Source: Eledone cirrhosa
Taxonomy: Eukaryota
Assembly (NCBI GenBank): GCA_964016885.1
Contig: OZ024742.1
Location: 306,776,001 to 306,840,000, forward strand
Length of the DNA stretch: 64,000 nt
Direction of reading: 5' to 3'
Part shown: piece after piece, positions 1 through 52,058 of the stretch
Layout: every line of letters begins with the position of its first letter
Position numbering within the stretch: the stretch's first letter is position 1
Position numbers and translations under genes: made by a program
Notes under the pieces: generated by a model
Databases searched by the model: none
The model's input: only the letters and a program-made list of their open reading frames with translations
What the model was told of the DNA's origin: nothing

Positions 1-2150
1 AGCTAACATTGCTAGTAACTACAGACTGTCCTACTTCCTCTCCCTGATCATACGCCCCATCATTGAAATGTCCCCAGATGTATGTGACAGCACGGAGGAC
101 TTCCTCAGCAGAATCGGCGTGTGTAACCGATCTAGGGACCTAACAAACTGCATAATAGGTAGTATGGATGTTGTGTCCCTGTATCCATCTATTGACGTGG
201 ATTTTGCCGTGGATTTTAATGTTGAGTTCCGTGGGATTGATACCTGTGAGCTGGGACTCCTACTTAAACTTACCTATAGTAATAATTATCTAGACACATA
301 TGACCTTAGCAACCTGTGCCCTACAAGACCAGCAAGAGGCAGACCACCTACCATTACCTCAATGGCCAAGAAAACCCACACAGATAGATAGAACGGGTGG
401 ACCAGAGCCATACGGACACCCGAAAACCACGATGAACTGAAGAAAATGACTGCACAAGCGGTAGGGGCCAGCATAAAACTAACCCTTAAGGAACATATGT
501 TCAAATTTAATGGAAAAACATATGCCCAAGAGGAAGGAGCAGCCATTGGTGTTAGCATTGCAGGCGACATAGCTAACTTATTCATGGTATGGTGGGATAG
601 TAGACTTAAACTTAAACTTAAAGAACAATTAGAAGACCCCTTAACCCTGATAATGTACTCCCGCTACGTTGATGATATAAACATCGTGTTAAGACACCCC
701 CACTACAGAACAGTCAGGAACTAGAGAAAAACACAATGGAAAGCATCCAGCAAATAGCTAACTCCATCCACCAGAGCATTAGAGTTACTATAGACTACCT
801 AAGTAAACACCCCAACCATCGATTACCTGTACTAGACACAGAGCTCTGGTTAGATACCATTAATAACAAAAAACAAATCCTCCATTCCCATTATGCCAAA
901 CCCATGACTTCCAAACATCTGATCCACCGAAACTCGGCCGTTTCGGACCATACCAAAATCAACATACTGATTGCGGATTTGGTAAGGGTGATGAGAAACG
1001 TGTCCCGCATGTGCAACCCCGAAGAACTAGTGAGACACATACAACACTTCATCCACCGTATGCAGTTCTCTGGCTACAATCAGAGAGATAGGATCAGAGT
1101 GTATAGAGGAGCCAGAACTAAATGGGAAAAAATCGTAAATAATGACATAAATGGGACCTGCACCTTGTATAGGAGACAATTTTTTGGAATAGAATAGAAA
1201 GAAATAGGAACAAGGCTAATAGAATAAACTCATGGTATGATAGCAATAAATACCAGAGTGTAATGTTCATCGATACAACCCCTAGAGGTGAATTAGCTTA
1301 CAAATTTAGAAGGGCCCTAAATAAACATAAACTCAATATTAAGATAGTAGAAAGACCAGGTACCTCCGTAAAAACACTTATTAGCAAGACATACCCTTTC
1401 CATAGACCCTCATGTATAGATAAGAAATGTATAACCTGTAAAATAAGCCCCCATATTAACTGTAAAACTAGAAATGTAGTGTATAGCATAAGATGTACTG
1501 AAGGACAATGTAGAGACAAAAATATAGTGTACATAGGTCAGACAGCTCGTATTGTAGGGGTACGGATAAATGAACACTGGCGAGACCTTCAAGATAGTAA
1601 AGAATCATCTGTACTCTACCAACATGCTAAAATAGAACACAAGGGTAAATTAGAGAAGATAGAAATAAAAATAGAATCTACACACAGAAAAGACGCAATG
1701 TTTAGACAAATTACAGAGGCAATAAACATAAAAGAATTACAACCAAAATTAAATAGAAAATATGAGTGGAACAGCAACATCACAACTTACAATTAAGGAC
1801 AAAATGAAAACACACACACACACATAGAACAAACAACCAACCAGTAACATGTAAATAAACAAATAAATAAATGAACATAAACACACACAGACACCCGGAT
1901 GTGGCGCATGCGCAGACTGAGCACACAACACACACACAGAAACAAAATGGCGTAGGACAGAACAAAGGAGAGGCACAGAAACAAAGAAAGGAATCCCCAG
2001 TCACTGAAGAGGTCACAGAGTGTGTGACGAAAGAACTATGACTATATATAAACAACTATCTGGTTGTGGAACCAACCAACCAACCAGAAATTTATAAATT
2101 TATAAATTTATTATAAATTTATTATAATAAATTGAAGTGAAAGCAACAGG
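1..2150 (+). mobile_element. Penelope-like retroelement (RT + C-terminal GIY-YIG endonuclease), degraded, 5' end outside the window
   Basis: Broken ORFs 68-391, 446-724, 736-1197 and 1263-1796 carry RT motifs GSMDVVSLYPSI, QEEGAAIG, YSRYVDD, LPVLD and GIY-YIG motifs NVVYSIRC..YIGQT..RINEH..EAINIK..PKLN. The 3' UTR contains an HHR. Confidence 0.93.
1999..2043 (+). ncRNA. Minimal type I hammerhead ribozyme in the PLE 3' terminus
   Basis: AGTCA-CTGAAGA-G-GTCAC(agagtgt)GTGAC-GAAA-GAACTA-TGACT. Stem I AGTCA/TGACT, stem II GTCAC/GTGAC, very short stem III, CUA triplet. Confidence 0.7.

Positions 2151-3580: not shown

Positions 3581-3668
<88 letters not shown>
3089..3668. repeat. Compound (TA)/(TG)/(GA) microsatellite
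   Basis: Direct reading. Similar tracts lie at about 4199-4790, 5380-5686, 15265-15580, 44130-44490, 55250-55845, 56210-56635 and 61100-61640. Confidence 0.97.
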
Positions 3669-3669
<1 letters not shown>

Positions 3670-3672
<3 letters not shown>

Positions 3673-4198
3673 GAGTTTATGTTGGTTGTATACCAACACC
3701 TCAGTATACAGGCTGGAGCACTCGACGAAGTGCGCAGGTTGGTTTGGTTACTCCGGAGTAGTGTAAAATAAAGTTAAATAAAAGTCAAATGATTAAAATT
3801 TAGCTTCGTTTATTACTGCTATATATATTTTAGTGACATCCATCTTTGGCTGTGACCTCTTCAGGCAGTTTGAATTAGTATGGTATAGACAAGTACATAT
3901 GTTGTTTAGGTGTATAATATTGTCAATACTCTGATATGCCCAGTTCCTTGTTGGGTTGTTAATTCACTGAGGAACATATGACTCCAGTTCCTGAGTGAAT
4001 TAACAACCCAACAAGGAACTGGGCATATCAGAGTATTGACAATATTATACACCTAAACAACATATGTACTTGTCTATACCATACTAATTCAAACTGCCTG
4101 AAGAGGTCACAGCCAAAGATGGCTGTCACTGAAATATATATAGCAGTAATAAACGAAGCTAAATTTTAATCATTTGACTTTTATTTAACTTTATTTTA
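3670..4198 (-). mobile_element. HHR-bearing PLE-terminus element (family B) with a ~435-bp fold-back palindrome
   Basis: 3764-3975 is a near-perfect inverted copy of 3987-4198. 3670-3870 is homologous (reverse complement) to 42630-42834. Confidence 0.85.
4093..4147 (+). ncRNA. Type I hammerhead ribozyme (mirror copy at 3815-3869, minus strand, has GAAA>AAAA)
   Basis: ACTGC-CTGAAGA-GGTCACAGCC(aaagat)GGCTGTCACT-GAAA-TATATATA-GCAGT. Stem III is palindromic. Confidence 0.85.
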
Positions 4199-4322
4199 TA
4201 TATATATATATATGTATTTATTTATGTATACGTATGTGTGTATGTGTGTACGTATGTGTGTGTATATTTGTGTGTATGTGTATATATGTATGTGTATCTG
4301 TATGTATGTGTATGTATATTTT

Positions 4323-4763: not shown

Positions 4764-4790
4764 GTGTGTATATATATATATATAAATATA

Positions 4791-5378
4791 GGTAGAAGTT
4801 AATATGTCCAGGGATACTGAGGTAAATATTTATATTATATTTTTTAATGTATTTTGAAAAATTGATTGAATTTTACTTGTTCTGCTTATCTTAATATTAA
4901 AGTTCTGGTGTATCAAATTAACACCATTGAACAACCTTGAATCATAGACAACCTATGTATTTCTAGGGGTACCTAGTATCCCTGGACATATTAACTTCTA
5001 CCTTTTTCTCCGTCCGTTGAGAACAATCCTGTTGCTCTACTTGGCTGCTATTTTTTTAGTAGTAATTGTAGACAGCAAGTCTTTGATTTTCCCGCTTTTA
5101 CTTCGGTCCAGTTTACATACGGGTCAATTTTACGACCTTTCAGACCTTTATTAGCTGGCAGGAGGTTGTATATTTTGTCGTTCCTGGGACGTTTAGCCCT
5201 AGGAAGGGAAAATGCTTCTCTGATGAGCTTTGGTTTTCCATCATAAATCCATCGGATTTATGAGGTTTTACAAAGCGAAACTGATCAGTAAGGACCACTA
5301 GGAGAGGTAAATATTTATATTATATTTTTTAATGTATTTTGAAAAATTGATTGAATTTTACTTGTTCTGCTTATCTTA

Positions 5379-5380
<2 letters not shown>
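4791..5380 (+). mobile_element. Retrozyme-like HHR element family C copy 1 (485-bp unit, partial tandem, 28-bp 5' inversion)
   Basis: 4821 onward repeats at 5306. 4791-4818 is the reverse complement of 4975-5002. Flanks are (TA)n. Confidence 0.85.
5216..5294 (+). ncRNA. Type I hammerhead ribozyme
   Basis: TTCT-CTGATGA-GCTTTG..(TCATAAATCC/GGATTTATGA)..CAAAGC-GAAAC-TGATCA-GTA-AGGA. GUA triplet. Confidence 0.9.
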
Positions 5381-5469
<89 letters not shown>

Positions 5470-5685: not shown

Positions 5686-5690
<5 letters not shown>

Positions 5691-6332
5691 GATAAGCAGA
5701 ACAAGCAAAATTCAACCAATTTTGCTTGTTCTGCTTATCTTAATATTATAGTTCTGGTATGTCAAATTAATACCATAGAACAACCTTAATACATAGACAA
5801 CCTATATATTTCCAGGGGTACTTAGTACCCACGGGCATATTAACTTCTTCTATTAATATCTCCGTTATGTTGAGAACAAATCTGTTGTTTATATTTAGCT
5901 GCTATTTTTAGTAACGAGATAGACAACACGTCTATGCTTTTCCCGCTTTCACCTCGGGTAGTTCACGTACAGGTCATTTTTCGGCCTTTCGAATCTGTGC
6001 TAGCTGGCAGATAACAATATATTTTATCGTTCCTGGGTCTTTAGCCCTAGGAAAGGAAAATGCTTCTCTGATGAGCTTTGATTTTCTATTGGAAATCCAT
6101 TGGATTTCTGGTGTTTTACAAAGCGAAACCGATCGGTAAGGGCCAAAAGAATAGGTAAATATTTAAATTATATTTTTTTAAATTTTGTTTTTAAAAAATT
6201 GGTTGAATTTTGCTTGTTCTGCTTATCTTAATATTATAGTTCTGGTATGTCAAATTAATACTATAGAACAACCTTAAATCATAGACAACCTATATATTTC
6301 CAGGGGTACTTAGTACCCACGGGCATATTAAC

Positions 6333-6337
<5 letters not shown>
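5686..6337 (+). mobile_element. Retrozyme-like HHR element family C copy 2 (488-bp unit, different start point, 5' inversion)
   Basis: 5723 onward repeats at 6211. 5686-5720 is the reverse complement of ~6198-6232. It is a diverged relative of copy 1. Confidence 0.85.
6064..6142 (+). ncRNA. Type I hammerhead ribozyme
   Basis: TTCT-CTGATGA-GCTTTG..CAAAGC-GAAAC-CGATCG-GTA-AGGG. The palindrome ACCGATCGGT covaries with ACTGATCAGT of copy 1. Confidence 0.9.
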
Positions 6338-10976: not shown

Positions 10977-11871
10977 TTAGGTTGTCCGGAATGTTCTGAG
11001 CGTTTTTAAGCTAAATCTTTTTACGCTTCATTAAACACACCTGAAACGAAACACAGTTGACGCTTTGCGTTGATTGAAGTGGTAGTGCATCTCTTCTTTC
11101 TTCCTGACTATAAATAGATTTATCTTTCATTCCAATTACACTTTATTCACACTTGAAATGGTTAACCAAAATTTCCATATTCGCGTTGTAATTCTTTTTT
11201 TTTTTTAAAGGAAGAAAAGACTATTCCGTTTATGATATGCTTTTGAAACGAAATGAAAGTATGCCTTTTTTAAACAACTTGTGACTGGAGATGAAAAATG
11301 GGTGGTGTACGAAAACGTGGTACGAAAAAGATCCTAAAGTTTGCGTGTGGATACCCAAAACAGCAACCAAATATGAATATCCATGCCAAAAAGGATATGC
11401 TTTGTGTTTTGGTGGGATCATAAAGGCATTATTTATTATGAGCTTCTCCAACAAAACCAGGCCAATAATTCTGATGTGTACTATTGTCAGCTGGCTAATT
11501 TGAACCAAAAAGTCAAAGAATTGGGGCCGGAGATTGCCAACAGGAATGGGGTAGTTTCCAACAAGACAATGCCCGACCACATGAACTTGGTTGGGATCTC
11601 TTACCCCATCCGCTATATTCTCCTGATGTTGCGATATCCGGCTATCACTTGGTTCTCTATCTACACAACTAATTGCAAGGAAAAACATTTAACGATTTAG
11701 ATGAGGTCAAAATGCATCTAGATAAATGTTTTCTTCAAAGCCAGTCAAATGTTATGCTGACGGAATATTTACATTGCCTGATAGATTGAAATTATTTCAT
11801 TGAATACAATTTATTGAAAGGTCAATTATTTATATCGCTTTTTGCATATAAAAAACGCTCAGATCTTTCCA
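10977..11871 (+). mobile_element. Mariner (Tc1/mariner) DNA transposon, degraded and internally deleted
   Basis: TA precedes the left TIR TTAGGTTGTCCGGAATGTTCTGAGCGTTTTT, and a partial right TIR AAAAACGCTCAGA is present. Transposase motifs VTGDEKWV, HAKKDMLC/FWWD and HPLYSPD occur across frameshifts. Confidence 0.9.
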
Positions 11872-12372: not shown

Positions 12373-13270
12373 AGAAGGAGGCTAGAACGGGAAGAATAAC
12401 TACTGGATAGAGGGAGGCTAGAAAAGGAAGAATAACTGAAAATACAGGAAGGCTATAAATTGAAGAATACATACGGAAAGATGGAGTACAAAAAGGGAAC
12501 GGAAACTAGTAATACAGGGAGACTAGAAAGAGAAGAAAAACTACTGATAGAGGGAAGCTAGAAATGGAAGAATAACTAGGAATAGAGAGCGGCTAGAGAG
12601 GGAAGAATAACTAGGGATACGGGGAGGCTAGAAATGGAAGATTAATTATTGATAAGGGGAGGGTAGAAATGGAAGATTAACTATTGATAGGGGGAAGTTA
12701 GAAATGGAAGATTAACTATTGATAGGGGGAAGTTAGAAATGGAAGATTAACTATTGATAGGGGGAGGCTAGAGAGGGAAGAATAACTAGGCATACGGGGA
12801 GGCTAGAAATGGAAGATTAATTATTGATAAGGGGAGGGTAGAAATGGAAGATTAACTATTGATAGGGGGAAGTTAGAAATGGAAGATTAACTATTGATAG
12901 GGGGAGGCTAGAAATGGAAGATTAACTATTGATAGGGGGAAGCTAGAAATGGAAGATTAACTATTGATAGGGGGAGGCTAGAAATGGAAGATTAACTATT
13001 GATAGGGGGAGGCTAGAAATGGAAGATTAACTATTGATAGGGGGAGGCGAGAAATGGAATATTAACTATTGATAGGGGGAGGCTAGAAATGGAAGATTAA
13101 CTATTGATAGGGGGAGGCTAGAAATGGAAGATTAACTATTGATAGGGGGAGTGTAGAAATGGAAGATTACCTATTGATAGGGAGAGGCTAGAAATGGAAG
13201 ATTAACTATTGATATGGGGAGGGTAGAAATGGAAGATTAACTAGGGATAGGGGGACGCTAGAAACGGAAG
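12373..13270 (+). repeat. 35-bp purine-rich minisatellite (~25 units)
   Basis: Unit GAAATGGAAGATTAACTATTGATAGGGGGAGGCTA (e.g. 12911 and 12946). A 175-bp higher-order repeat occurs at 12596/12771. Confidence 0.95.
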
Positions 13271-13362
13271 GTTGTCCCAAAAGTTCCGAGCGTTTTTTAA
13301 TATGCAAAAAGGCATATAAATAATTGACCTTCAATAAATTTTATTCAATGAAATAACTTCTA
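13269..13362 (-). mobile_element. Mariner right-end fragment
   Basis: Reverse-complement similarity to 11785-11871, including the TIR (AGGTTGTCCCAAAAGTTCCGAGCGTTTTT). Confidence 0.75.
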
Positions 13363-13836: not shown

Positions 13837-14035
13837 TAACGAAGGCAGTGTGGTAAGGAACCAGATGGACCATAACGCACCAGAGTACTCAGTACTTAGG
13901 GTAGTAGGGTGGGTAATAGGAAATGGTTAACCTTGACGGCAGAGCTCAAGCCTTTTCGAAGACTATTTCTGGACGGTCCAGAAATAGCCGTCGAAACGAC
14001 TTGAGCTCTGCTGTCGGGGTTAAACATGTTTCTAT
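13837..14035 (-). mobile_element. ~200-bp hairpin-ended element (family D) copy 1, containing a half-HHR
   Basis: Homologous to 14817-15013 and 43927-44121. The terminal ~120 bp forms a hairpin, and flanks are (TA)n. Confidence 0.8.
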
Positions 14036-14816: not shown

Positions 14817-15012
14817 TAACGAAGGAAATGTGTTAAGGAACCAGATGGACCATAACGCACCAAAGTACTCAATACTTAGGGTAGTAGAGTGGGTAATAGG
14901 AACGAGTATGACCCCGACGGCTGAGCTCAAGCCGTTTCGACGGCTAATTCTGGACCCAGAATTAGCCGTCGAAACGGCTTGAGCTCAGCCGTCGGGGTCC
15001 TACTGGTTCCTA

Positions 15013-16026: not shown

Positions 16027-16265
16027 TGTTTCTTTATTAGCCACAGCGTCACACAAGAAGGGGACAAATACAAAGGGGGAAGTTTACATACAATAAAAAC
16101 GTGTAAAATGTTATCACAAATGCAATTTAAAAAATTAGTCGATTTTCCCCAATGGGGGGAGACAGTTCATATAGGTAACACATAACCCCGAAAAAATGTG
16201 AAACCCTCATCTCCAGGAGTACGAAGAGTTTGTACTCCTTTCCTCTCCTCCTCCTTTTCCTCAAC

Positions 16266-19200
16266 CTACAGGCTGATATAGAGAGAAGGCCCATTCACTC
16301 GGGCCAATCTCGCCACTTTCACCCACCTTTCATAAAACTTGCTGGGGTACAGCACCTCTCTCTCCATCCTGATTCTTCTTCCAAAGTGGTATTTGAAAAA
16401 AATAATCAGTTGTTGGCCGGAGAGAAAGGTGTCTGACCTCAGCCCTTTCAACCTTGTCCACCATACAACCTCTTTCGCCATAGCTATCACACAAAGGAAA
16501 ACCGCCTCTCCTTCGTTTTTGAAAGAGGGTAGCGGAGTGATCATGACAATGGACTCGGTGGTCAACCGGATTGGTCCCACCCGCGACAATAGTCTTTCTA
16601 CATAGCCCCCAGGTCAGTGACACCCGGGCAGTGTATGAATGCGTGCGCGACGGTTTCTTCGTTACGCACGCATCTCGGACAGATCTTTTTTGCAGGGTCC
16701 CTGCTCGGGCGCCCATGTCTGTAGAGCTTGTCTCGAACTGGTAGAGCTCCTCGGTAGCACTGCCAGGCCAGGGACTTTTGGAAGTTGTCCATCGGTCCCG
16801 GGTGGAAGGTCCTACCGAACAGACTGGCCAGTTCATCTTCCTCTACGCCTAGAGTTTCACCGAGCGCGTCGTCGCACTTGCTGCGGATCAACTCTCTATA
16901 GAATGACGAAGTGGAGTCTCCACTGATCGCCGGGTCCGCCTGCCAGAGGGCTGTGAGCGCTTGAGCACATTCGATGTGCCAGTCGCCCATTTTCCTCGGT
17001 CTTTGCTTGACCCAGGACTGCAGCTCGGTCAGCGAGACGAGTCGTGGGAAGGCTCGCCTCACGAACGGGGCCCACACCGGTTGTCCGGTGAGGAATACGT
17101 AGAGATGCCGCAGCCTGAGTGCGTGTTTGCGCATCGTCAACCACGGCATCCCCAGCCCTACGTTAGAAGGGTGTTGGCAGCAGATGGATCTTCTCACCAA
17201 AGGAGCCCGCCTCTTCCAAAGGAATTGGAAGAGCGCGCGCTCCATTTTGGAGAGCGTTTTGGCTGGACAAGGCACGACGGTCAATCGGTAGTAGATGGCG
17301 GACGCTATAAAAGTTTTCGCCACCTCCGCTCGACCTTTCAAGAATAGTTTGCACTCGGCCCACTTCTGGGTGAGTGCAAACACCTTGGCCGTCACTGCGT
17401 TCCAGTTCTTCTCCACCTGGAGGTCCGGACCAAACCAGACCCCAAGCAGCTTTACCGGTCCTTCCGTCCAGCGTCCGACGACGCCATCGGAAGGCATCGG
17501 TTTGCCTCTCCACGATCCGAGTTGCAAACCGATGGAGTTGTCCCAGTTCAGCTTCGCTCCTGTAAAACTTTAGTATTCCTTCAGTAAGGTGCCGACTTCC
17601 TCGATTTGCGAGGCGCTCGAAACCATTACTGTGACGTCGTCGGCGTAGGCCGACGCCGCTTTCCGCAGTCCCGGTTCCAGAGGGATGCCCTGCAATAGCT
17701 CCAACTTCCGCAGTAGTGGCTCGAGAGTCAGTACGTACAGAAGGGAGGAGAGAGGGCATCCCTGTCGAATGGATCGCGTAATATGGAACGGCTCCGAGAG
17801 GTAGCCGTTCACCTTGACCCTTTAGCAGATATTGCTGTTGTGCATTGCAGCAATCCAGCCCCTGAACACGGGTCCGAAGCTTGTCGCCTCGAGCACCGCA
17901 TCCAGGTAACGATGGTCAACCCTATCGAAAGCCTTAGACTGATCCAAGTTGATCAGGGCCCCACCGAAGCCGGGTTTACACCCAACCCTCTCTATGATGT
18001 ATCGCATGAGGTGGAGGTTGTCGTGTATGGACCTTGTCGGGATTGCGCATGTCTGCGCTTCTCCCACCAGGTTCTCGACGACAAGCGCCAGCCTCTTTGC
18101 CAACACCTTGGCCAAAATCTGTAACTCTGTGTTTAGCAGAGTTATGGGCCGGAAGTTGCCTGTGTCATCCCCCTTATTCTCGTCCTTCCTGACTAGTGTG
18201 ACCACGCCCCCGGTTACAGAACTGGGAATTCTCCCGTTCTGTTGTCAGTTGCAGTAGACCGCTTCCAGGAGACCGGAGAATAAGTCCGGCATTGCTACGT
18301 AAAATTTGTAGGGTAGACCGTCGAGACCTGGAGATTTGCATTTGCCGCATTGGCTTAGCGCGACCACTATGTCAGCGGCTGAAATCAACTTTTCGCAGAA
18401 CTTTGACTCGCTGTCCGAGAGTCGTGGTAGGCCGTCGAGGTATGGACCGAAATCCATAGCCTCTCCCGGCGCGCGGCCCCGCCCGAACAGTTGAGCAAAG
18501 TGTCGCTCAATGGCCGCACACATCTGCTTCGGCTCACGTATCACGCGTCCGTTTTGGTCCTTCAAAGACCGAATCGTGGACTTGTTGCCACTTTTTGCCT
18601 CCGTCACTCGGGCCCAGCTAACAGCTTTGGCTCCCTCGTTTCCCAGAGCACGTATTTTGCTTCTGACAACGCAGCCCTCGTGCTTTGCGTCGAAGAACTG
18701 GTCCAAGGCCGTTCTCGTTGCTAGCACGCTGGCTACGTTGCCACTTCTAATTGCCTCTTCTACTTTATCTACCAGTTTCTTCTCGGTTCTATTTCTATCT
18801 AACGCTAATTCTTTACTAAAAACTAACGAGTCTAATCTAACTGCCTTCTTGAGAGAACCACCATCTGTTGTTGACAATGGCTCCTGTCAAGTGCTGTTTA
18901 ACTAAAGTGCTAATCCGTCTACTGGAGGCTTTGCTTGTCGGTAACGACAAGTTCAGCTTCCAGTAGCCGGGTCCTTGTCTATGGGTTCTATCAAGATTGG
19001 CCATGCAGGTCACTAGTTTGTGATCTGAATAGGCAACCATGAACATTTGTGGACAGCTTAACATGTCCCTATCCTTATTTCTAACTAGAACCCTATCTAG
19101 GTATGATCTAGATGTTCCGCTGCGATTAGTCCAGGTTCATAGTGGCACAGTCGGAAAATCTAGTCGATATCTATCGGCCAGGTCAAATCTGCCGTTAACT

Positions 19201-19706
19201 GTTTAAGGCTGTTACACGCCCCCTCCTCCTTTATCTGGACATGCTCCCACATAGTCCCAACGTGCATCTAGGATTCCATTCCAGTCCCCCACTAAAAGCA
19301 AGGAGCGGGACGTTCCCAGAAAAGTCTCTACATGTTTGAAGAAGTCTAGCTGTTGTGTCCCGGGTGGGGCATATGCAACCACCAGTCTGAAGGCTCCACC
19401 TTCACTACCGTCAACGTCTAGGACCACCAGTCGACCCTCCGAGTCCAGATGTACCGTCTGTGTTACGAGGCCCAGGTGTTTCCGCAGCAAAACGGCAACT
19501 CCGCCCCCACCCCCCGGTTGACAGAGAGATGCGTAGATCTCAAAGTCATCGAAGATGGGGGCCAGCTGTCGCTCGCTGTGAATCCTGTACTCGCAAATGG
19601 CTACCACATCCATACTGTGCGACCTGAAGTTGTTTAAGAGTTTGCCCTGTTTCCAGGGTATCGCCAGGCCGCGTACATTCACACATCCAACTCTTATATT
19701 GGCCAT
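16266..19706 (-). pseudogene. LINE ORF2 (AP endonuclease + reverse transcriptase + C-terminal Zn motif), disrupted
   Basis: VGCVNVRGL, LLVGDWN, YSDH, KSPGLDGLP, FRPITLLN, LDQSKAFDRVDH, IRQGCPLS, AYADDV, LLGVWF and CPRC..ETVAHAFIHC occur, with several stops and frameshifts. Confidence 0.92.
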
Positions 19707-21549
19707 GTTGGTGCTGGAAATTTAAAAGAAGGGGAAAAGAAATCACTTACCTCTTCGTCTTCTGGGAACCAGGCTGCACGATTTCCATGGGGGTGTTTGA
19801 GGGGTTGTTTGGTGGTGGTTTCTGGTGGGATGGGGACGGAGATTTTTGGTGGAGAGGGGGTGTATGGTGGGATGGAGTGTCTGGGGTGGGGGTATCTAGG
19901 GTGGGGGTGTGGAAACATTTTAACAGGACTCGATTGTATATTTGACGCAGGCGTTACCTACGTCGTTAGGAAATTTTCCTTTTAACTGTTTACGTGTGTC
20001 CATGGAGATCCTAATCATTTTAAGGTTAGGATTCTCCGAATACTGTGTAAAAGATTTCCCTTCGGTCTCGACCGAAGGTTTTTTATATATGGGGTCTGTT
20101 AAAGTGTTATTCTTAGTATTTATGTAGGTGTAACATTTTTGTTGCGTTGTGTTGCTTTTTGTCTGTGGTTCTTGTGTGTGTTTATGTTTTGTAGTAGGTG
20201 TTTTGTTTTCAGGAGGGGGTGTTTTTGTTTGTGCTGTTTGCGTTGCTTGTGTGTTTGTTGCATTTTTGTTTGTGTTATGTCTTTTCTTTTTTTCTTTTTA
20301 CTGGTCGGAAAAGCTCTCCCTCATCGTCACTGGGTGACGATGATGAGGCCTCATCCGTGTTGTTGGGGAGGGGTACATTTTGGGGAGTTGTTATGTGTGT
20401 GGGTGTTTCTGGAGTTGTTTTAGTTGGGGAGGGGTTGGGTGGGACTGTGTTTGTCGTTTGTTTTGTTGTCACTATTTTTTATGTTGTTGTTGTCGTTGTG
20501 GTGGTGATGGTTGTGCTGGTGTTGCAGGTGTTGGCAGTAGTGCCTTTTTGGGGCTAGTTAGCCGAGGACAGGAAGCTCTCAGGTTACCCCTGCTTAAGCA
20601 GTGGTAACATGAGGGCCGCCTACCCTCGACCGAAATGTTTATGTATATAAGCCCATCCAGCAGAACACGTTCCGGGATCCTAGCTAATCGTTCTGGCGTC
20701 ATTTGGACCAGAATTTCCAGGCTAGATCGGCTAAACAGGACTTACCTACCGATATTATTGAGTCTTTTTGGAGGTTTAAAATCCACATAGTACCCACCAA
20801 ATATCAATATTTGGTGTGATGCTTTCGATTTTTATTTTCTGTGTTCTTTTCCCCATGTAAGTGGGGGAAAATGTGAACAGCGGTAACACAATTGGCGACA
20901 CAGAATATCTCTGTGCCGTCAATTGGTTTTTCACCAGAATGGATAAACTCCCGTAGAGTCTACCCTTCTGAATGAAAGCAATGTCTTTTAAGGCATCTTT
21001 TAAAACCAACTCAATTTCACCTTGTGAAAGTTTAGTTGGTTTTCGGGTTTTGTTTGAGACTGTCCTGAAAACCAGTTTTCAAGGCAGTTTCTCTTCGCAA
21101 ATCTGGGGGAGAGTTTATGGAAAATGATCCGTTCTCCCCCAAAGTTACGTACTGTCTGGCGTTATTCAAAAGATCATTTGCATTTGAAATATCCACCGGA
21201 GTGTAGCTTACCGTTTTCTTTACGGTTTGCGCAAACGGTATTTTGTCGTTTACTTCCTTGTTGCAGTTATTGGTCTTGTTGTTGTTGTTGTTGTTCTTGT
21301 TGTTGGTGTTGTTTTAGTTCATAGTATTGTTGTTGTTGTTGTTGCTGGTGCCGCTGGTTGTGTTGTCTTTGTCCATTGTTTCACACTTTTGGCCATGGCA
21401 ACGTCAAGTTGTTAGTCAGCAGGTGAACAAAATCCTTCCTCTGGCTGAACTTTGTCTGAGACATCTGCTATTATGACAGTGGGATGGGGAAGCTGTAAGC
21501 ATATCTTCCCCGTTCCTCCTGTTGGTGAAGAAGCTGTTGCCTCAGCCAT
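19694..21549 (-). pseudogene. LINE ORF1 (gag-like), disrupted
   Basis: Candidate start MAEATASS at 21549. VEGRRPSCYHCLSRGNLRASCP is a CCHC-like knuckle (H>N), flanked by low-complexity Q/T/P/K regions. Confidence 0.7.
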
Positions 21550-27385: not shown

Positions 27386-28292
27386 CCTGAATGAGTATGC
27401 ATGTTTATGTGTGAGTGTATGTGTGTTTGTGTGTGAGTGTGTATATGTGTTTGTGTGTTTGTGTGTGAGTATGTGTATGTGTTTGTGTGGGAGTGTGTGT
27501 AACCAAACAAGCAAAACTAAAGAAACGATAAGTGATGTGGTTAGGTTCATTAGGTTACGAAAGATTTTAAATAACCAAATATAAAAACATGTATATAACT
27601 ATATGTAAAGAGGTACATGTATATAATTATATGAAACTAGCTGCATGTAAATAGCTACAGCTAAACCACATGTATGTAGCTACATGTATATAACTGCCTA
27701 TAAATATGTGGATGTAAATAATTATATGCACATAGCTAAGTGTAAATAACTACATACTGCAATTTAAAAAAGTTACACGTATATTTCACTAATGTATATA
27801 AATTATGTGCTACTTAAATAACTACATATATTTTTGTGTCTGTATTATTATTGCTATGGCACAAAAAATAATATAGAAAAGGCGAATTAGTGTAGATTTT
27901 TTAATACATCTCTTAAATGTCCGAAGATTGGAAGCGTGGAAATCGAACCAATGGCTAGATAAGTCAGCTTATATATATATATAAAAAAATTAAAGTATAG
28001 AAATTGTTGTGAGCGTGAAGCCAACAGTATTTCTTAATATATAAGTGACCATAACGTCAAAATGGAAAAATAGTTAACGTAAGATGTGGGAAAATAATTC
28101 AAACTCAATTTTAAAAAAATCAAGACATAGATTAATCCATAGAATTTTGTGAAATCCAGGGAAAAATCAATAGAGCCTTCGAAGCAATGGCTAGCTAAGT
28201 CAGCTTATATATATATATAAATTAAACGGAAAAAATGAAACGAAATTTCATTTCTCACTCTTAGTACGGCTGTTAGTACAGCAGGAAGGTAT

Positions 28293-28335
28293 ACGTTGCT
28301 GACGATAGCTAATAAGCTTGAAACTAGTACAACGT
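28293..28335 (+). ncRNA. Minimal type I hammerhead ribozyme
   Basis: ACGTTG-CTGACGA-T-AGCT(aata)AGCT-T-GAAAC-TA-GTA-CAACGT, with the ACTAGT palindrome. Confidence 0.9.
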
Positions 28336-28721
28336 TCCTTTGTCAGTGTTGAACAAACGAGCAACGATGGTTGCTAGACACTACGGCTTAACACGGGATG
28401 CTTGTTTACAAACACACCGAGCATTATAATAAATGTTCGGTGAATCCATACGTACATATATATATGTGTGCATGTATGTATATATATATATACATACTAC
28501 TGTACGTCTGTATACATATATGTATGTACGTATACATACTTATATTTAAGTATCAGCCGTACTAACAGTGAGAAATGAAATTTCGTTTCATTTTTTCCGT
28601 TTATCGTTTTCGGTACCCCGGCCGATTAACTCACTCGATATGCAAATTAGGCTGCTCAGCCGTTAATATGCATAAGGAAAGTATATACTTTCAGACGTTC
28701 AACCATCTGGCAGGAAGGTAT

Positions 28722-28764
28722 ACGTTGCTGACGATAGCTAATAAGCTTGAAACTAGTACAGCGT
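28722..28764 (+). ncRNA. Minimal type I hammerhead ribozyme (second copy)
   Basis: Identical core. Stem I is ACGTTG/CAGCGT, where the A>G change gives a U-G wobble. Confidence 0.9.
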
Positions 28765-30620
28765 TCCTTTGTCAGAGTTGAACAAACGAGCAACGATGGT
28801 TGCTAGACACTACGGCTTAATACGGGATGTTTGTTTACAAACACACCGAGCATTATAATAAATGTTCGGGGAATCCATACGTACATTTATATATGTGTGC
28901 ATGTATGTATATATATATACATACTACTGTACGTCTGTATACATATATGTATGTACGTATACATACTTATATATATAAATTAGTAAAGTAGTAGGCGCGT
29001 GTACATTTGTTGTTAGGGAGATCGTCTCACGATTGTAAGGTTATGAGCACGATTCCCGACGGTAAGTTGGGTCCTTGAGCAAGGCACACTATTTTGTATT
29101 GTTCAAGTCCTCTCAGCAGGAACAAAAGCTAGTTACACACGATTAAAAGATCCAAACTTATGACACGCTGTATCACGTAGAATCTTCGTGAGAATTACGT
29201 TAAGAACCCTCGTGTCTGTGGAATGTTCAACAAATTAAACGGTATTTCATGAGAAGTCTCTTCTGTTGAACAAGCAAGTGAAGAAACGTCGTCGGAACTG
29301 ATAGATGTCCAAGACACACCCATATACACAATTTGTATAACTGCAAGTATACAGACATGTATTCTATATAAACCGCAAGTAATGCCAATAATCCAATAAA
29401 ACAAATAATTCATGCAAAAGCCAATGTCAATTTCTTACGTCTTTAGAGTGTTGGACAAAGTACTTTGAAATGTTCCCTTATTTGGCGGTCTGATTTCAAT
29501 TTCCACAAAGTTTTCTATAAACAAAAAATAAAAACATGGGTTTATTGAGGGAGCTAACAACCACTTCTTATCTAACATCCAAGATTTAGCATCAAACCCT
29601 ACGTAACAAGATAAGAGTTTAAATAAAGAAATATTCCATGTATTTACACGGTAATCATGTATTGTTACAATTTCCTCATATTTCGATCTATATTTACGAA
29701 TGTCAACCGGATAAGAATAGCAGCAATATTTTGAAATTACATAGTAATGTCTTACACAATGAACGGCTTATTGAATAATTTAAAAGAATATCAATAGATA
29801 ATAATTTAAAGATCCGAAGCCCTTCTTATAATGCGACAGTTCGATCTGGAATGACATATGATTAAACAAAAACACAAACACACTCCAAATTTACAAATCA
29901 ACGACAAAGCCTCTATTCTGTAGCTTGACTTGCTAGAAATAGTCGCCAAGTATAATTTAAATAAATGGCTACTCTATTAATATGATATAATGTATTCCTA
30001 AATTTAAAAAAATCCTAGAAAAATGAGGGTTTGCACCCGTCTAGATGACATTTTTATTTAGGTTTAATCGTCATCAACAATATCAACAACAACGTGACGT
30101 ACGCATATGCATTTTGTTGTTGCTATTGGTACAGGTGATGATGATGCTATAGGTGATGACTACAAACATAAGTGGTAGTAATAGAGTTAGAGAAAATAGA
30201 GAGATTGAGCACGTTTGTTGCTTGGTAACAGAGTATTTCGCTGTTGTAAATTTACCGTTCGTGTTCTAAGGATTGTGAGAGACAAACAGATGTGATGAAT
30301 ATTAAAAAAGAAAACAAACAGTCACCAGAGTACGACATTGGCACACAACATTCTGGATGCCCCCTTTAAATAGAATCATTCACATCAACTTTATTAGCAG
30401 TCGACTGAGGATAGCAACCAGTACTTTACTGGGAGTCGAATTTACAGCAGTTTTAATATATACATACATAATATATAGGTTCATACATGCACACATGCAT
30501 ACATACATACATACATACATACATACATACATACATACATACATACATAATACATACATACATACATACATACATACATACATACATACATACATACATA
30601 CATACATACATACATACACG

Positions 30621-38941: not shown

Positions 38942-39546
38942 CGATATTAATAAATGGAAACTATATTTATAAAACCATATTTATTTCATTATACATATTT
39001 CAGGGATACCACATTAAATTATGGTATGCCTTCATCAGACAAAATACAATATATAACAGTTTTACAAATAGCTTAGACGTACCCTTTTAAAATGCAACCA
39101 TTACTTTTGGAGGCTGTGTGGATAGTGATTTGTTTATATTATTTTAATAAGTCATTGTGTTAAGCACAATTAGAAAAAGACGGAGAGAAAGAAAAAAAGA
39201 AAAAAGACGGAGAGAGAGAAAGAAAACCTGGAGAAATATCGGAGAGAGAGAGAAATGTATGGAGAAAAGAAAGAGATAAATAAAGATAGGAGGAAATACA
39301 AAAGAAAGAAAAAAAGAAAGAAAGAAGAAAAGCAAAGGAAAGCAACAGAGAGATATCAAGTCATCATACAGATAGAAAAACTCAAGAGAGAGAAATACTA
39401 TATAGAGAGAGGGGAAGATAATGAAAACTTTACGTCATGTCATATTAAGTTGAGTTAACAATTTATATGAAATGAATAATAAAAATATAAATATCAATAT
39501 TCATGAATGGGACATAGATATATAATATGAGAAATTAAAATAGATT

Positions 39547-42288: not shown

Positions 42289-42834
42289 TTAGATACTAGG
42301 CAGTACTGGGTTAGTGAATGTCACTGATGAAATCTTACCGAATCTTGAAAGAACTACCAATCCGGACCACCGCTGGCAAATAGGAAACCTGTTCACAGAG
42401 AAAAATAGAGAAATATATTTTCTTTCCCCAAAAGAATTGATTGCAATCAAGCATATAGCATATACTTTGATATACACCGCTATTATCCTTAATTGCTGCC
42501 CGGGTGTGTTGTTAGTCCTCAGGTTCCTTTGAGGACTAACAACATACCCAAGAGCTGGACATATCGATGAATTACCAGAGTGGAACACATTACAACACCA
42601 TGTTTACCTTTTTTTCTACATTAATTCTTACTACCTGATGAGGTCACAGCCAATAATGGCTGTCACTGAAATATATATAGCAGAAAATTAGAATAAACGA
42701 AGCCAACTTTAACATGTTTGACTTACACATTTTATTTTACATTACTCCGGAGTAAACAAACCAGCCTGCGTACTTCGTCGATTGCTCCATCCTGCATACT
42801 GAGGTGTTAGTAAACAACCAACACATACTCAACA
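42289..42834 (+). mobile_element. PLE 3' remnant, family B copy 2, with an internal hairpin (42502-42549) and an HHR (42631-42683)
   Basis: CTAC-CTGATGA-GGTCACAGCC(aataat)GGCTGTCACT-GAAA-TATATATA-GCAG. The tail matches the reverse complement of 3670-3810. Confidence 0.8.
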
Positions 42835-42942
42835 TATATATATATATACATATATACATATATATATATATATGTGTGTTTGTGTGTGTGTGTGTGTGTG
42901 TTTGTGTGTGTTTGTGTGTGTGTACGTGTGTGTGTATATATA

Positions 42943-43926: not shown

Positions 43927-44121
43927 TAACAAAGAGAGAGTGGTAAGATACCAGGTGGACCATAACGCACCAGAGTACTCAATACTTAGGGTAGTACAGT
44001 GGGTAACAGGAAATAGAGTCAGGACCCCGACGTCTGACCTCCGGCCGTTTCGACAGCTAGATCGGATCTCGCTCTCGAAACGGCCGGAGCTCAGCTGTCG
44101 GGGTCCTGACTCTTTTCCTAT
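43927..44121 (-). mobile_element. Family D copy 3 (hairpin at about 44008-44120)
   Basis: Same GGACCATAACGCACCAGAGTACTCAATACTTAGGGTAGTA body and terminal fold-back, in (TA)n. Confidence 0.8.
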
Positions 44122-46238: not shown

Positions 46239-46695
46239 TATTGGTAAAAGGAAAAGAAAATGCTGACAAATTGTTCCCAGTGAAAAATAGTTTAATTAGG
46301 AATAAGTAAAAATTAGTAATAAATATTGGTTAGTATTCAGTTTTGGTTTTAAGTTTTTACCGGTTGCGCATTTCTAATGCTTTTCAAAAATAATTTTGAG
46401 ATAGAGCGCCCGTGATTTTTACTCTAATCTGATTAGTTTTGGAAATTCTACCTGTTTTATGTGAAAAAAGTGGCTCCAGATGTAATAAAATAAGTTTCGC
46501 GCCATCTCAAAATTATTTTTGAAAAGCATTAGAAATGCGCAACCGGTAAAAACTTAAAACCAAAACTGAATACTAACCAATACTTATTACTAATTTTTAC
46601 TTATTCCTAATTAAACTATTTTTCACTGGGAACAATTTGTCAGCATTTTCTTTTCCTTTTACCAATATATCACAACTCGTGTGTTACACCTCTAT

Positions 46696-46700: not shown

Positions 46701-46769
<69 letters not shown>

Positions 46770-47421
46770 AGAAGCAAAAAATTGCTTATTGTGATCCAGT
46801 TTTTGGTTAAGAAAGCCAGTTTCATGGATGGTTTCAACGTACGGTTAGGGGTAACTCCACAAGTTTGTAAGAATTCCTTTCAATCTTGGAATATAAAGTA
46901 TAAAAGAGAAAATACAGGTAAGCATTAAGAGTAGGATGTAATCCAGGTATTTACGACCGTTTCATTGGTAAGTGCAACCTTATATTGCTATACTGCAAAT
47001 AGCAGCCACTCAATTATAATTGTTGTTCACAGTCCAAATTTTCAAAATAGTGAGTTACTCTTGAAATAATTCTTAATATATAGAGAAAAACATTTATTTG
47101 GAATTGTATTTACTAGTATAGAGAGAGAGGAATCAGGAGGTGGGGGGACAGACGGCATAGTATAGAGAGAGAGGAAGGGGGAAGAGGTAGGAAGTAGAAT
47201 GACAAACTGAGGTGGAGGTAGGGGTAGAGGTGGAAGGATTCTTTGGTCAGTTTTGATAGCAGACATCATGTCGTGGAGTGTAGTGAGTTAAAGAGAATTA
47301 AATAGATAATAGTGGGAGGGATGGATAGAGAGGGAGAGAGAGAGGGGGGAGATATAAAGAGATAAATATATATATATATATATATACACACATACATACA
47401 CATACATATATACACACACAT

Positions 47422-47504
<83 letters not shown>

Positions 47505-47778
47505 CATACACACACACACATATACACACATATATATATATATATAAAAAAATAAAAATAAAGATAATAATGACAAAAATAAAAGCAAAGAAGGGGGTGA
47601 GGAGGAAGAAAAGAAAAGATAGCCAAGAAGGGGGAAGGAAGGAAGAAAACGAAGAAATAGAAGAGGAATGAGGGAGAAGGGGGGGATATATGTATTGGTT
47701 TTGTGGGTAATTAAAGGGTTTAGATATAAGAGGGTATAAAGTCTAAGTATATGCAGTTTGTCAGTTGGTAGTAAGAGG

Positions 47779-49657
47779 TTAAGTGTTCGATTTGTAGTGC
47801 GAAAATTTCTCTTTGAGTCTATGGTTACAGTAAATTGATCTCTCAATTTTATTGTTGAGTAACCTATTCTTCGAACTTAAGATGTGGAACAGCTCAAGGT
47901 CGCATAATCGACAGCTTCTCATACCACTCCGATATGGAGGCGCGTTTGATAATTTTTTCCACTTCAGGGTGTATTGATGGTTACTTTCCCTCAGTTGCCA
48001 CGTCTTGTTTGCAAGGGTAGTTGCATAACGGTGCTGGGAATGTTTCATTGCGTAACGGTGTGTATACCAACGAGCTTTAAAAGTATTCCCAGTCGCTCCG
48101 ATGTAATACCATTTCTGGTTGTCTGATTCCACTGTGCATTGGTAAACCAGGTTAGACTGCATACATTCATTTTGTAATGGACAGGTTTCAGGTAGGTGGC
48201 AGTTGCATTTCTTGTTATGGGCAACTTTGGCATTATTTGTGGGCTGCGATGCCTGAACAAGTGTGTTACGTTTTGTTTGCCTATTAGCGGGTGGTTGTGT
48301 ATTAGATATTCTTTTGTGTTCGGTGGTAATTGTATTGTTATTGTCGTAAATTTGTGTTTTGGTGTTGTTATGTATCTTTTTAGCGTTAAGCATCTTAATG
48401 TGTGCTTCTATATTTGGTGCCGTGGAGTAAGATAGTCTAATAGATTTAGTGTTAAGGATTTTGCTGTATCTATGTGAATCTGGAAAGTGCCTATTTATTA
48501 TTCTAAAGAAAGTAGAGGGTAGGTTAGTACTAATAGAGGTGTTAAATATGGGGTTATACCAAATATATTTTCTACTGCGTGACTTGTTTGATTTCGATGT
48601 TGTACTTCTATTTGCCGTATACTTTGCAGTTCTATGCGTAAATGTGTGTATGCGTGTGTTTCTGGAGTTTGTGTTATGCGTGTTCGTGTGTGCTTCACAG
48701 AGGCTTTCATCTATATATTCTACTCTATCTAAGTGGCCTGCCTTGTCTAATGCGGTATTGTAGTATTCTGCATGTTCTTCGAAGATTTGCCGGTTAGATG
48801 AGAGGCGGGAGATCCTAAGGGATATGCTGCGTGGAATGGATTTAATTATTGATAGTGGGTGGTTTGAGTTACAGTTGATGTATGCTAAGTTTTCATTTAT
48901 CTTGTGAAAAGGTCTTATAAGTCCCGTATTTAGGTTAAGCGTCACATTTAGAAAGTTAACTGTTTTAGTGCTATACTCGTACGTTATGCTTAGGTCTAGT
49001 TTTCCGAGAGTCTTTCTAATATTCTTACGGAGTCTTTCTATGCTCTAGTTATTTAGGTTCTTAACTAGGAGAAGGGCGTCGTCTCTGTAGATTCCACCGT
49101 GAAGGTCGCTAAACTCGCTTTGTAAACTATGGGCTATGTAAATACCTACTAAGTCTGTGACTTGAGCCGAGTCGTTAGCCCTCATCGTGATGTCAAAGTT
49201 ATTTAATCTATCCTTACGTTCCCAATAGGCGTTTTCAAATTTAATTATTGTTTTCCTAGCAGCTAATATGATTTTTATCTCGTCGTCTGTTATGTCAGAA
49301 TTGGCTTTGGCGAATGCTAAGGCTTTATCCAAGGTGTTGGGGGATATAGATGAGTAATAATCGTTAATGTCAAATTGTATAAATTTAGATACTTCTTTGT
49401 TAGCTATATTGTTAAACCATTTAATTGTTTCCGTAGCGTTACCCCATAGTTTAATCACTAGTTTATTCTTCATTTGTGCTATCACTCTGTCTAATATATG
49501 TTTACTAATTTTCCCGATGTCCGATTCGGATGGGCATATAAGTCTAATAGTGGGGTTATAATCAAAATTTACCTTGTGGTCTTTGAGGGTAAATGTGGGG
49601 GTACATGGCTTAAGTGGCTCCGTTCCGTCGTCTATTCCTAGGTGTTTGACTATATTG
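47779..49657 (-). pseudogene. PLE RT + GIY-YIG endonuclease ORF with a single in-frame TAG at 49045
   Basis: TLKDHK..RLICP, QFDINDYYSSI, FDITM, GIYRDD, SNHP, the CxCx5Cx5C linker (CNCHLPETCPLQNEC), LVY..YIGATG..FKARW and CRLCDLE are present. The two ORF-track pieces are in the same frame. Confidence 0.92.
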
Positions 49658-49969
49658 GACAAAACATCAAATGTGTATACGATGGATGTTAATACATACA
49701 ATAGCTTCATACGGAAAGAATTACATAGGAAATACAAAAAAAACAAATGGGGCGGCACTGATAAACATCAACAACGAGGCACACAATATAGTCAATATAT
49801 CCCCCCCTCCCCCTTCTCCCTCATTCCTCTTCTATTTCTTCGTTTTCTTCCTTCCTTCCCCCTTCTTGGCTATCTTTTCTTTTCTTCCTCCTCACCCCCT
49901 TCTTTGCTTTTATTTTTGTCATTATTATCTTTATTTTTATTTTTTTATATATATATATATATGTGTATA

Positions 49970-50000
<31 letters not shown>

Positions 50001-50390
50001 ATATATATGTATGTGTGTATGTGTGTGTATATATATGTATGTGTATGTATGTGTGTATATATATATATATATATTTATCTCTTTATATCTCCCCCCTCTC
50101 TCTCTCCCTCTCTATCCATCCCTCCCACTATGATCAATTTAATTCTCTTTAACTCACTACACTCCACGACATGATGTCTGCTATCAAAACTGACCAAAGA
50201 ATCCTTCCACCTCTACCCCTACCTCCACCTCAGTTTGTCATTCTACTTCCTACCTCTTCCCCCTTCCTCTCTCTCTATACTATTCCGTCTGTCCCCTCAC
50301 CTCCTGATTCCTCTCTCTCTATACTAGTAAATACAATTCCAAATAAATGTTTTTCTCTATATATTAAGAATTATTTCAAGAGTAACTCAC

Positions 50391-50492
50391 TATTTTGAAA
50401 ATTTGGACTGTGAACAACAATTATAATTGAGTGGCTGCTATTTGCAGTATAGCAATATAAGGTTGCACTTACCAATGAAACGGTCGTAAATA
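50391..50492 (+). ncRNA. HHR with U3-A8 variant core and long stem II insert (mirror copy at 46948-47049, minus strand)
   Basis: TATT-TTGAAAA-T-TTGG..(65 nt)..CCAA-T-GAAAC-GGTC-GTA-AATA. Confidence 0.6.
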
Positions 50493-50539
50493 CCTGGATT
50501 AAATCCTTCTCTTAATGCTTACCTGTGTTTTCTCTTTTA

Positions 50540-50575
<36 letters not shown>

Positions 50576-51242: not shown

Positions 51243-52058
51243 TTTCTTTATTAGCCACAAGGGCACAAAAGGGGACAAATACAAACGGGGAGTTTACATA
51301 GAGGTATATGAAAATAAAACTATTAATAAAATAATAAATAACAATTAAAATCGCCAAAAGGGGGGAGGTGTTACACAGGGGTTGTACACACCCTGTAAAA
51401 AAAATGTACAACCCTCACCTCCAGGGGCAACAAGAGTGAGTACTCCCTTCCTCTCTAACTCTTTTTCTTCAACCTACAGGCTTATATAGAGAGCCCAAAC
51501 ACTCGGGCCATCTTTGCCACATTCACCCACCTTTTATAAAATTTGCTGGGGTACAGCACCTCTCTCTCCATCCTGATTCTTCTTCCAAAATGATATTTCA
51601 AAAAACGAATCAGTTTCTCGCCGGAGAGAAAGGTGTCTGACCTCTGCCCTTTTAACCTCGTCCACCAGATAACCTCTATCACCATAGCCAAAACACATAG
51701 GAAAACCGCCTCTCCCTCGTTTTTGAAGGAGGGTGGCGGTTTGATCATGACAATGGACTCGGTGCTCAACTGGATTGGTCCCACCCGCGACAATAGTCGT
51801 TCTACATAGCACCACAGGTTGATAACGCCAGGGCAGTGTACAAATGCGTGCGCGACGGTTTCCTCGTCGCGCACGCATCTCGGACAGATCTTTTTCGAAG
51901 AGTCCCTGCCCGGGCGCCCGTGTCTGTAGAGCTTGTCTCGAACTGGTAGAGCTCCTCGGTAGCACTGCCAGGCCAGGGACTTTTGGAAGTTGTCCATTGG
52001 TCCCGGGCGGAAGGTCCTACCGAACAGACTGGCCAGTTCGCCCTCCTCTACGCCTAGA
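51243..52058 (-). mobile_element. 5'-truncated copy of the Tx1/L1 LINE in (GATA)n
   Basis: Collinear with 16030-16855 (MDNFQKSLAWQCYRGALPVRDKL..CPRC..HC). GATA repeats flank both sides. Confidence 0.93.

Follow-up and report, generated by a model that had tools for sequence, protein, structure and literature searches.

In Penelope-like elements (PLEs), a layout has been described in which a direct pseudo-LTR (pLTR) and an adjacent inverted pLTR overlap at a palindrome, with a tail on one arm (PMC3846280, PMC8557442). Palindromes at such inverted junctions were read by Arkhipova et al. (2013) as self-priming on an antisense template, and Adineta PLEs were reported with a 15-bp overlap and 5' palindromes of 18 and 38 bp (PMC3846280); the formation of tandem and inverted PLE ends has been named as an open problem (PMC8557442). 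In vitro, the Poseidon PAc protein of Anolis cuts and extends both strands and uses two reverse transcription start sites that bound the tail, the protein being a predicted dimer (Frangieh et al., 2024, PMC11167929). Regarding hammerhead ribozymes, a 2014 study described opposite-strand pairs separated by 100-700 bp (PMC4209133), and non-LTR retrozymes have been defined by Li et al. (2026, bioRxiv 10.64898/2026.07.22.740005) as tandem repeats, every unit of which carries a hammerhead.

The locus studied here is a palindrome at 3764-4198 of a 64,000-nucleotide window of Eledone cirrhosa DNA (the whole stretch that was analysed), and together with a sister copy at 42520-42835 it represents a hammerhead element family labelled family B in an earlier note on this DNA. 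It resembles EN+ PLEs in its head-to-head copies, junction palindrome, one-arm tail and microsatellite targets, and differs from them in the length of the tail (96 nt against 30-40 nt) and in carrying no ORF (PMC3846280, PMC8557442). With PAc it shares two starts bounding the tail, an AC-rich 3' stem-loop and an AT-rich target; the PAc starts were determined in vitro, whereas those of our locus are placed by genomic ends alone, and the available sections of the PAc report offer no explanation of inverted pLTRs (PMC11167929). The right-arm hammerhead has the architecture of those reported in 2014, with a helix I of 4-5 bp, a long helix II and a small palindromic helix III, but, unlike them, one core of the pair is mutated here and cleavage is predicted from sequence and fold (PMC4209133); lying on opposite strands, the two copies cannot form a dimeric ribozyme in one transcript. 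Non-LTR retrozymes and family B are alike as short non-coding type I hammerhead elements, thought to be derived from PLE pLTRs; retrozymes are tandem, whereas the two window copies of family B are single-unit or inverted, and a retrozyme reading was rejected on that ground (10.64898/2026.07.22.740005). A further parallel is the snap-back documented for the R2 protein, in which the cDNA 3' end self-primes before the 5' junction; this fits the 20-bp arm of the sister copy, but R2 is a different class of element and such a snap-back gives neither a tail nor a fixed second terminus (Zhang et al., 2024, PMC11371274).

The layout has already been described, and the self-priming interpretation, put forward in the earlier note as a concrete route to inverted pLTRs, was partly anticipated in print by Arkhipova et al. 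(PMC3846280). That work explains the palindromes by self-priming, whereas the loop orientation and arm ends at our locus lean to two cDNAs.

Structure and class of the palindromic element

Walking outward from the centre (3981), the fold-back was found to span exactly 3764-4198 (435 bases), with two arms of 212 bp pairing at 209 of 212 positions; the three mismatches lie at 3831/4131, 3839/4123 and 3969/3993, and the apex words given in the earlier note were located at 3956-3968 and 3994-4006. The near-perfect fold-back claimed there is real and its coordinates are exact, but the element extends beyond them, with 96 nt (3668-3763) lying outside. The features of the locus and of the sister copy are as follows:

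3668-3763, minus strand: 3' tail of 96 nt, on the left arm only; matches the sister region 42736-42835 and is covered by family contigs
3764-3975, minus strand: left arm, element sense on this strand, continuous with the tail; the main copy
3816-3869, minus strand: hammerhead copy bearing two private changes: AAAA in place of the core GAAA (G12 lost), and a mismatch in stem II
3976-3986, plus strand: unpaired apex loop of 11 nt, which prolongs the right arm in the 5' direction, from CATATG (3975-3980)
3976-4028, plus strand: element-encoded stem-loop of ~14 bp (3976-3992/4014-4028) with a 21-nt AC-rich loop
3987-4198, plus strand: right arm, an inverted, tail-less copy with a T-rich tract at its end, then (TA)n
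4093-4146, plus strand: type I minimal hammerhead with intact core; predicted cut after 4142
42502-42549, plus strand: sister hairpin of 20 bp with an 8-nt loop, at the 5' end of the sister; likely a short fold-back product
42520-42835, plus strand: sister copy, a subfamily ~80% identical; its hammerhead core lies at 42635 and its 3' terminus is that found at 3668

Compared with the upstream sequence of the family, the apex loop agrees at 11 of 12 letters in the element-sense orientation, which is that of the second arm, versus 2 of 12 when reversed, and the tail-less right arm extends ~12 nt further 5' than the tail-bearing left arm. The stem-loop at 3976-4028 (fold z -3.29, 1/200 shuffles; DNA fold -9.0) takes its 5' strand from the upstream continuation of the family. 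At the other extreme, the tail terminates in an AC-rich stem-loop (3670-3703, fold -7.5 kcal/mol) adjoining a (GA)n/(TA)n microsatellite. Both flanks of 3668-4198 are microsatellites, (GA)n/(TA)n on the left and (TA)n on the right, as is the 3' flank of the sister, and a search of these flanks found no target-site duplication. Private changes number 3 in ~308 nt and 2 in ~223 nt for the two arms, or ~1% per arm since insertion. The tail also holds a perfect palindrome of 12-14 nt conserved between both subfamilies (3749-3760 and 42742-42755), which lies 4 nt from the end point of the second arm and is a candidate binding or start signal.

Of the hammerheads that the earlier note placed in each arm, the one in the right arm stands: it has a 5-bp stem I, the core CTGAAGA, a long stem II, GAAA and a palindromic TATATATA helix/loop III, and folds at -16.7 kcal/mol (z -3.04, 3/200 shuffles). 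The left copy, with its mutated core, folds at -9.0 kcal/mol (z -0.54) and is predicted to be inactive. Both of its changes are private, the other letter being present in >99% of family depth in run X1, and the sister and the right arm keep the wild-type letters at both sites, which identifies the left hammerhead as the mutated copy. Selection against this copy was considered and rejected, the occurrence of two of the three arm mismatches inside the ribozyme being not significant (P ~0.16). Rfam returned no hammerhead at the gathering threshold in the 64-kb window (0 matches), and none within 3660-4210 at E values up to 5, where 17 matches to miRNA and snoRNA hairpin models at the apex, all below the gathering score, were rejected as fold artefacts. 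Given that Rfam is silent, the hammerhead call rests on core letters and fold, for the arms as for the sister (42630-42683), the letters having been matched to what we take to be the hammerhead consensus.

Judged by its sequence, the 435-bp locus consists of two 5'-truncated copies, placed head to head, of a hammerhead element that is abundant and non-coding, and this element is likely a non-autonomous PLE derivative of the pLTR type. The traits of a solo pLTR are present, namely a type I minimal hammerhead whose helix III is palindromic (called by core letters and fold), an inverted head-to-head partner with the tail on a single arm, and an AT-rich or microsatellite target. No ORF for a PLE-type reverse transcriptase (RT) and GIY-YIG domain was found in 3668-4198 or in the sister copy, and the element is therefore at most a non-autonomous PLE derivative. 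No autonomous RT-coding partner of family B could be linked by comparison with the 3' region of an in-window PLE (1797-2100), which has 15 nt in common with the element at the hammerhead core, in an alignment matched by 77/500 shuffles; similarity to the PLE at 2-1796 was accordingly not above shuffles, and neither was that to hammerhead family A (20/500). A MITE or foldback DNA transposon was rejected, considering that the sister and the family contigs are single-armed and that a 96-nt tail outside the repeat on one side makes the ends asymmetric. The structure is real, of a known kind and ordinary for the Penelope-like class.

The in-window PLE (2-2085, plus strand) is frameshifted, with weak RVT_1 and weak GIY-YIG similarity, and carries at 2004 the hammerhead that shares 15 nt with family B. 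Family A is found on the minus strand at 2295-2903 and 38942-39539 (cores at 2391 and 39038), in copies ~94% alike in which no inverted arm was seen.

Family contigs and the sister hairpin

Contigs of the family were collected by aligning runs X1, X5, X6 and X7, of 22 listed, to the left half of the element (3668-3998), which yielded 2384, 1, 15 and 2 contigs, respectively; X1 is among the three runs with the best coverage and is possibly the source sample; runs X12-X19, with small shares, were left out of these counts, and the contig details given below come from a sample, the best 12 of 124 loose ends and the best 19 of 2418 pieces. The best runs contain 0.72-0.80 of the 39 words sampled from the palindrome locus, and the tail and left arm are spanned together by X5 record 9 (3696-3975) and X7 record 18 (3678-3900). 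At least 13 X1 and at least 3 X6 contigs continue behind 3975 into one upstream sequence with a perfect 8-nt palindrome, TCATATGA, and it is on this family-encoded palindrome that the apex of the 435-bp palindrome sits. Summed depth in X1, which is not a copy number and served only to locate the edge of the family, was ~1.5-3.9e5 in the tail, 6-8e5 at 3788-3870 and 2e2 past 3979; over 3976-3998 it was 104-225, and therefore apex-like contigs exist. Within the duplicated part, the two arms agree at every listed polymorphic position of the family.

Other junctions were found in single contigs. One from X5 (depth 2.6) turns back at the same CATAT, its arm being 13 bp long, one from X6 (depth 4.2) forms a loop-free fold at 3938/3939, and in one from X6 (TA)n is joined at 3764, the element position of the outer end of the right arm. 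The four apices (435-bp locus, sister, X5 and X6) all fall within or at the edge of the stem-loop 3976-4028, a clustering that does not constitute an enrichment test, as the aligned stretch ends at the 435-bp apex. Furthermore, library chimeras form at palindromes (PMC10908179), and the X5 and X6 apices, as single low-depth contigs, may be such chimeras. Among the matches listed, no contig spans the 435-bp apex. The joints table is empty for runs X1, X5, X6 and X7, but this does not speak against fold-backs, since a family of high copy number assembles into contigs too short for the purpose. Exact-pattern scans gave 0 matches in metagenome contigs, viral contigs and prokaryote genomes, as expected for an animal repeat.

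The 96-nt extension of the element to 3668 matches the 3' end of the sister copy, at ~80% over 217 columns. The 20-bp hairpin that the earlier note saw in the sister is well supported, with 19 of 20 pairs between 42502-42521 and 42530-42549 (z -6.48, 0/200 shuffles), and the two hairpins do align: 3982-4029 and 42518-42565 match without gaps with a score of 40, reached by 0/1000 shuffles, and the apex at 3981 and the sister hairpin lie at equal distances upstream of the hammerhead. The claim that the apex maps to this hairpin holds to the extent that both fall in the same ~55-nt stretch, but the centre of the sister loop maps to 3989.5, 8.5 nt from the 435-bp apex, near and not identical. By contrast, the notion of a pre-existing, element-encoded hairpin acting as template was not supported by comparison with the family: the 5' arm matches its own diverged 3' arm at 19 of 20 positions and the family at 13 of 20, and the upstream continuation of the family in contigs is a different sequence. 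On these grounds, the sister hairpin is more likely a fold-back product than a template or a family feature, and would have arisen by fold-back of the cDNA end with ~2 nt of pairing and 20 nt copied, the loop having the orientation expected. The consensus of one X6 contig gives a hint of a degenerate upstream inverted copy of the sister's loop, and the hairpin may be element-encoded in the sister's subfamily, of which no second whole copy was seen. The flank upstream of the sister (42290-42501) was rejected as element sequence, with 1/200 versus 83/200 shuffles depending on the strand and no clear alignment.

Related layouts in the window

Three other families of the window served as controls for the layout of the palindrome:

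4790-5385 and 5688-6337, plus strand: hammerhead family C, two partial-tandem loci with a unit of ~488 nt; cores at 5221 and 6068
28223-28975: hammerhead family D, a 429-nt partial tandem with cores at 28299 and 28728 and a microsatellite inside the unit
47779-49767, within 46763-50549, minus strand: PLE with broken RT and, C-terminally, a GIY-YIG-like domain

The family C hammerheads have a long stem II and a palindromic helix III, with a core read by eye; the energy fold gave stem II, not the whole ribozyme. At 4790-5385 the long arm ends at a terminus T1 (~5378) and a 34-nt inverted arm ends 2-5 nt from a second terminus, T2. For the locus at 5688-6337, T2 is where the long arm terminates, whereas a 36-nt inverted arm stops at T1. 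These termini, 104 nt apart, are thus used reciprocally by the two loci, with a chance of ~2e-4 to 3e-4 under a uniform null that is too lenient, as AT-rich sites are favoured and the ends were compared after seeing the data. Because long-arm ends must be RT starts, the short arms end on RT starts. The junctions carry microhomologies of 5 and 6 nt, the second of which is a 6-bp hairpin carried by non-inverted copies, on which the hairpin at 5688-5742 sits; this supports the general idea of the earlier note that element-encoded inverted sequence sets the junction.

In family D, a 53-nt inverted 5' arm corresponds to 55 nt beyond the main terminus and ends on (TA)n offset from it. Families C and D are also compatible with long-range snap-back and fixed-site cutting, because the partial-tandem long arm could template the short arm. 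The PLE at 47779-49767, whose RT and GIY-YIG labels we take from motifs, had 0 Pfam matches; a GIY-YIG cluster is among its atlas neighbours. Its 3' region recurs in inverted form at 49795-50549, and both ends lie on (TA)n. A 750-nt inverted 5' arm faces the element across a 2.1-kb loop, for which no local hairpin is needed; the end of this arm, on (TA)n, is offset from the main terminus.

The window holds several other repeats. A G+C-rich family has three copies (13923-14027, 14899-15010 and 44009-44118), each ending in a hairpin of 105-112 nt by (TA)n, which is element-encoded, as it is present in all three. A MITE-like element at 46242-46664 has near-perfect terminal inverted repeats of ~165 bp, a 100-nt spacer and a TA context; a tandem array with a 70-nt period occupies 12373-13273; and a mariner-type transposase fragment lies at 11377-11700 (Pfam Transposase_1, E 7e-14). 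At 16191-19721, minus strand, there is a broken ORF2 of a non-LTR retrotransposon, presumably with endonuclease, RT and a zinc-finger-like end as its motifs suggest, and a second copy of its 3' end (88%) lies at 51399-52054.

Origin of the palindrome

If a simple snap-back had occurred, the cDNA would be the arm that carries the full 3' end, and the loop would have to read from that arm. Here, the loop is oriented like the second arm, and hence the tail-bearing cDNA can have been its template only if 7 nt were deleted later; a loop in the tail-less arm therefore leaves either a symmetric fold at CATATG followed by the loss of 7 nt, or two cDNAs joined. The outer end of the second arm is not random, as (TA)n adjoins the same position of the element in the X6 contig, a junction that may be the same locus in a related species, and the second arms here and in the two family C loci end at recurrent element termini. 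In addition, the loop-free or nearly loop-free apices (X5 at CATAT, X6 at 3938/3939) suit end-to-end annealing better than a hairpin. We tentatively prefer, at somewhat less than even confidence, a palindrome formed during insertion by the head-to-head joining of two target-primed cDNAs over the fold-back of a single cDNA, and, taken together with the in vitro data on Anolis, this joining may well be the most economical reading.

The anatomy of the locus is what we observed, and from it we infer all the enzymatic steps of such an insertion. A Penelope-type RT/GIY-YIG protein acting in trans would nick a (TA)n/(GA)n tract on both strands; of the DNA ends, one would prime at the distal start site (the equivalent of 3668), with the tail included, and the other at the internal start site (the equivalent of 3764), giving a tail-less copy. 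Both cDNAs would halt in one and the same structured region close to the 5' boundary, formed by the stem-loop and the TCATATGA palindrome, and their 3' ends would be joined by microhomology, of 1 nt as found, and then filled in; alternatively, the joining would involve 8 nt via the TCATATGA palindrome, with 7 nt subsequently lost. Private change of ~1% per arm has accumulated since insertion and has presumably inactivated one hammerhead core.

Several observations weigh against the joining of two cDNAs. Only one long-armed locus of family B was seen whole, and the symmetric CATATG fold with a 7-nt deletion at the apex yields an identical sequence; the centres of palindromes are known to lose bases. 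The agreement of the arms at the listed family polymorphisms is that of a one-molecule copy, although two RNAs of the same subfamily would also agree, and the long cDNA of families C and D, being a partial tandem, holds the template of the short arm, which long-range snap-back and fixed-site cutting would fit. Craig et al. (2021, PMC8557442) ascribe the tail to endonuclease resolution, the X5 and X6 apices could be chimeras of the library (PMC10908179), and the arms of the sister (20 bp) and of X5 (13 bp), which do not end at a terminus, fit a snap-back. Short 5' hairpins such as the 20-bp arm of the sister are better read as true cDNA snap-backs, and both routes, joining and snap-back, probably operate in family B.

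An amended snap-back ranks close behind as a possible, though rather doubtful, account of the 435-bp locus: the tail-bearing cDNA would have run just past TCATATGA, folded there, self-extended and been cut or stopped at the internal terminus, with 7 nt later lost from the apex. The position of the apex on a family-encoded 8-nt palindrome favours it, with ~6% of element positions, by a rough estimate, lying within 2 nt of such a centre, as do the X5 contig folding at the same place, the geometry of the sister, whose 8-nt loop has the expected orientation, and the agreement of the arms at family polymorphisms. Moreover, such junctions are documented for insertions by the R2 protein, especially after full-length cDNA (PMC11371274), and self-priming has been proposed for PLEs (PMC3846280). 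Nevertheless, it calls for one event more, the loss of 7 nt, and for synthesis to be halted in a programmed way at the internal terminus; leaving aside the bulge seen in the family, the intramolecular stem measures only 2 bp; and the 20-bp hairpin of the sister differs from the upstream sequence of the family. The snap-back self-priming advanced in the earlier note thus retains an apex on family-encoded self-complementary sequence and the sister geometry, but has against it the loop orientation and a second arm longer by ~12 nt.

A post-insertion, two-step origin is unlikely. A second copy would have inserted head to head into an older one, or host replication or repair would have switched template at the stem-loop and so duplicated part of a single copy; an inter-strand template switch gives an inverted loop, as found here. 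PLEs are reported to be able to nick their own pLTR (PMC11167929). However, the similar private change in both arms points to a like age, the same layout recurs in the three other families of the window, and host switching would not stop at element termini. An assembly or library artefact is highly improbable: the lack of an apex-spanning contig among the matches listed, the empty joints table, the incomplete recovery of the 39 sampled words in the best runs and the difficulty of assembling palindromes within microsatellites would speak for it, but the arms do differ at three sites, which the earlier note rightly counted against it, no adapter is present at the apex, the X1 depth extends over 3976-3998, and the loop consists of genuine family sequence that the left arm lacks, and so was not copied from that arm.

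For inverted pLTRs of PLEs in general, twin target-primed reverse transcription, with each target end priming at one of the start sites that bound the tail, is a conceivable route that we hold with some reserve; within it, and with similar caution, short palindromes encoded by the element may be where the two cDNAs anneal head to head. A two-cDNA reading of PLE inverted ends was not found in the literature searched, and the 2005/2006 reviews and the 2017 Terminon paper may contain one. The orientation of the loop and the outer end of the second arm give opposite predictions for a snap-back and for two joined cDNAs, and can be tested from sequence alone; the abundance of family B, with 2384 contigs in one run, makes it a test bed in which both read-outs can be counted. 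If true, the joining of two cDNAs would tie the in vitro findings on Anolis, namely the extension of both strands, the two starts and the predicted dimer, to a genomic layout.
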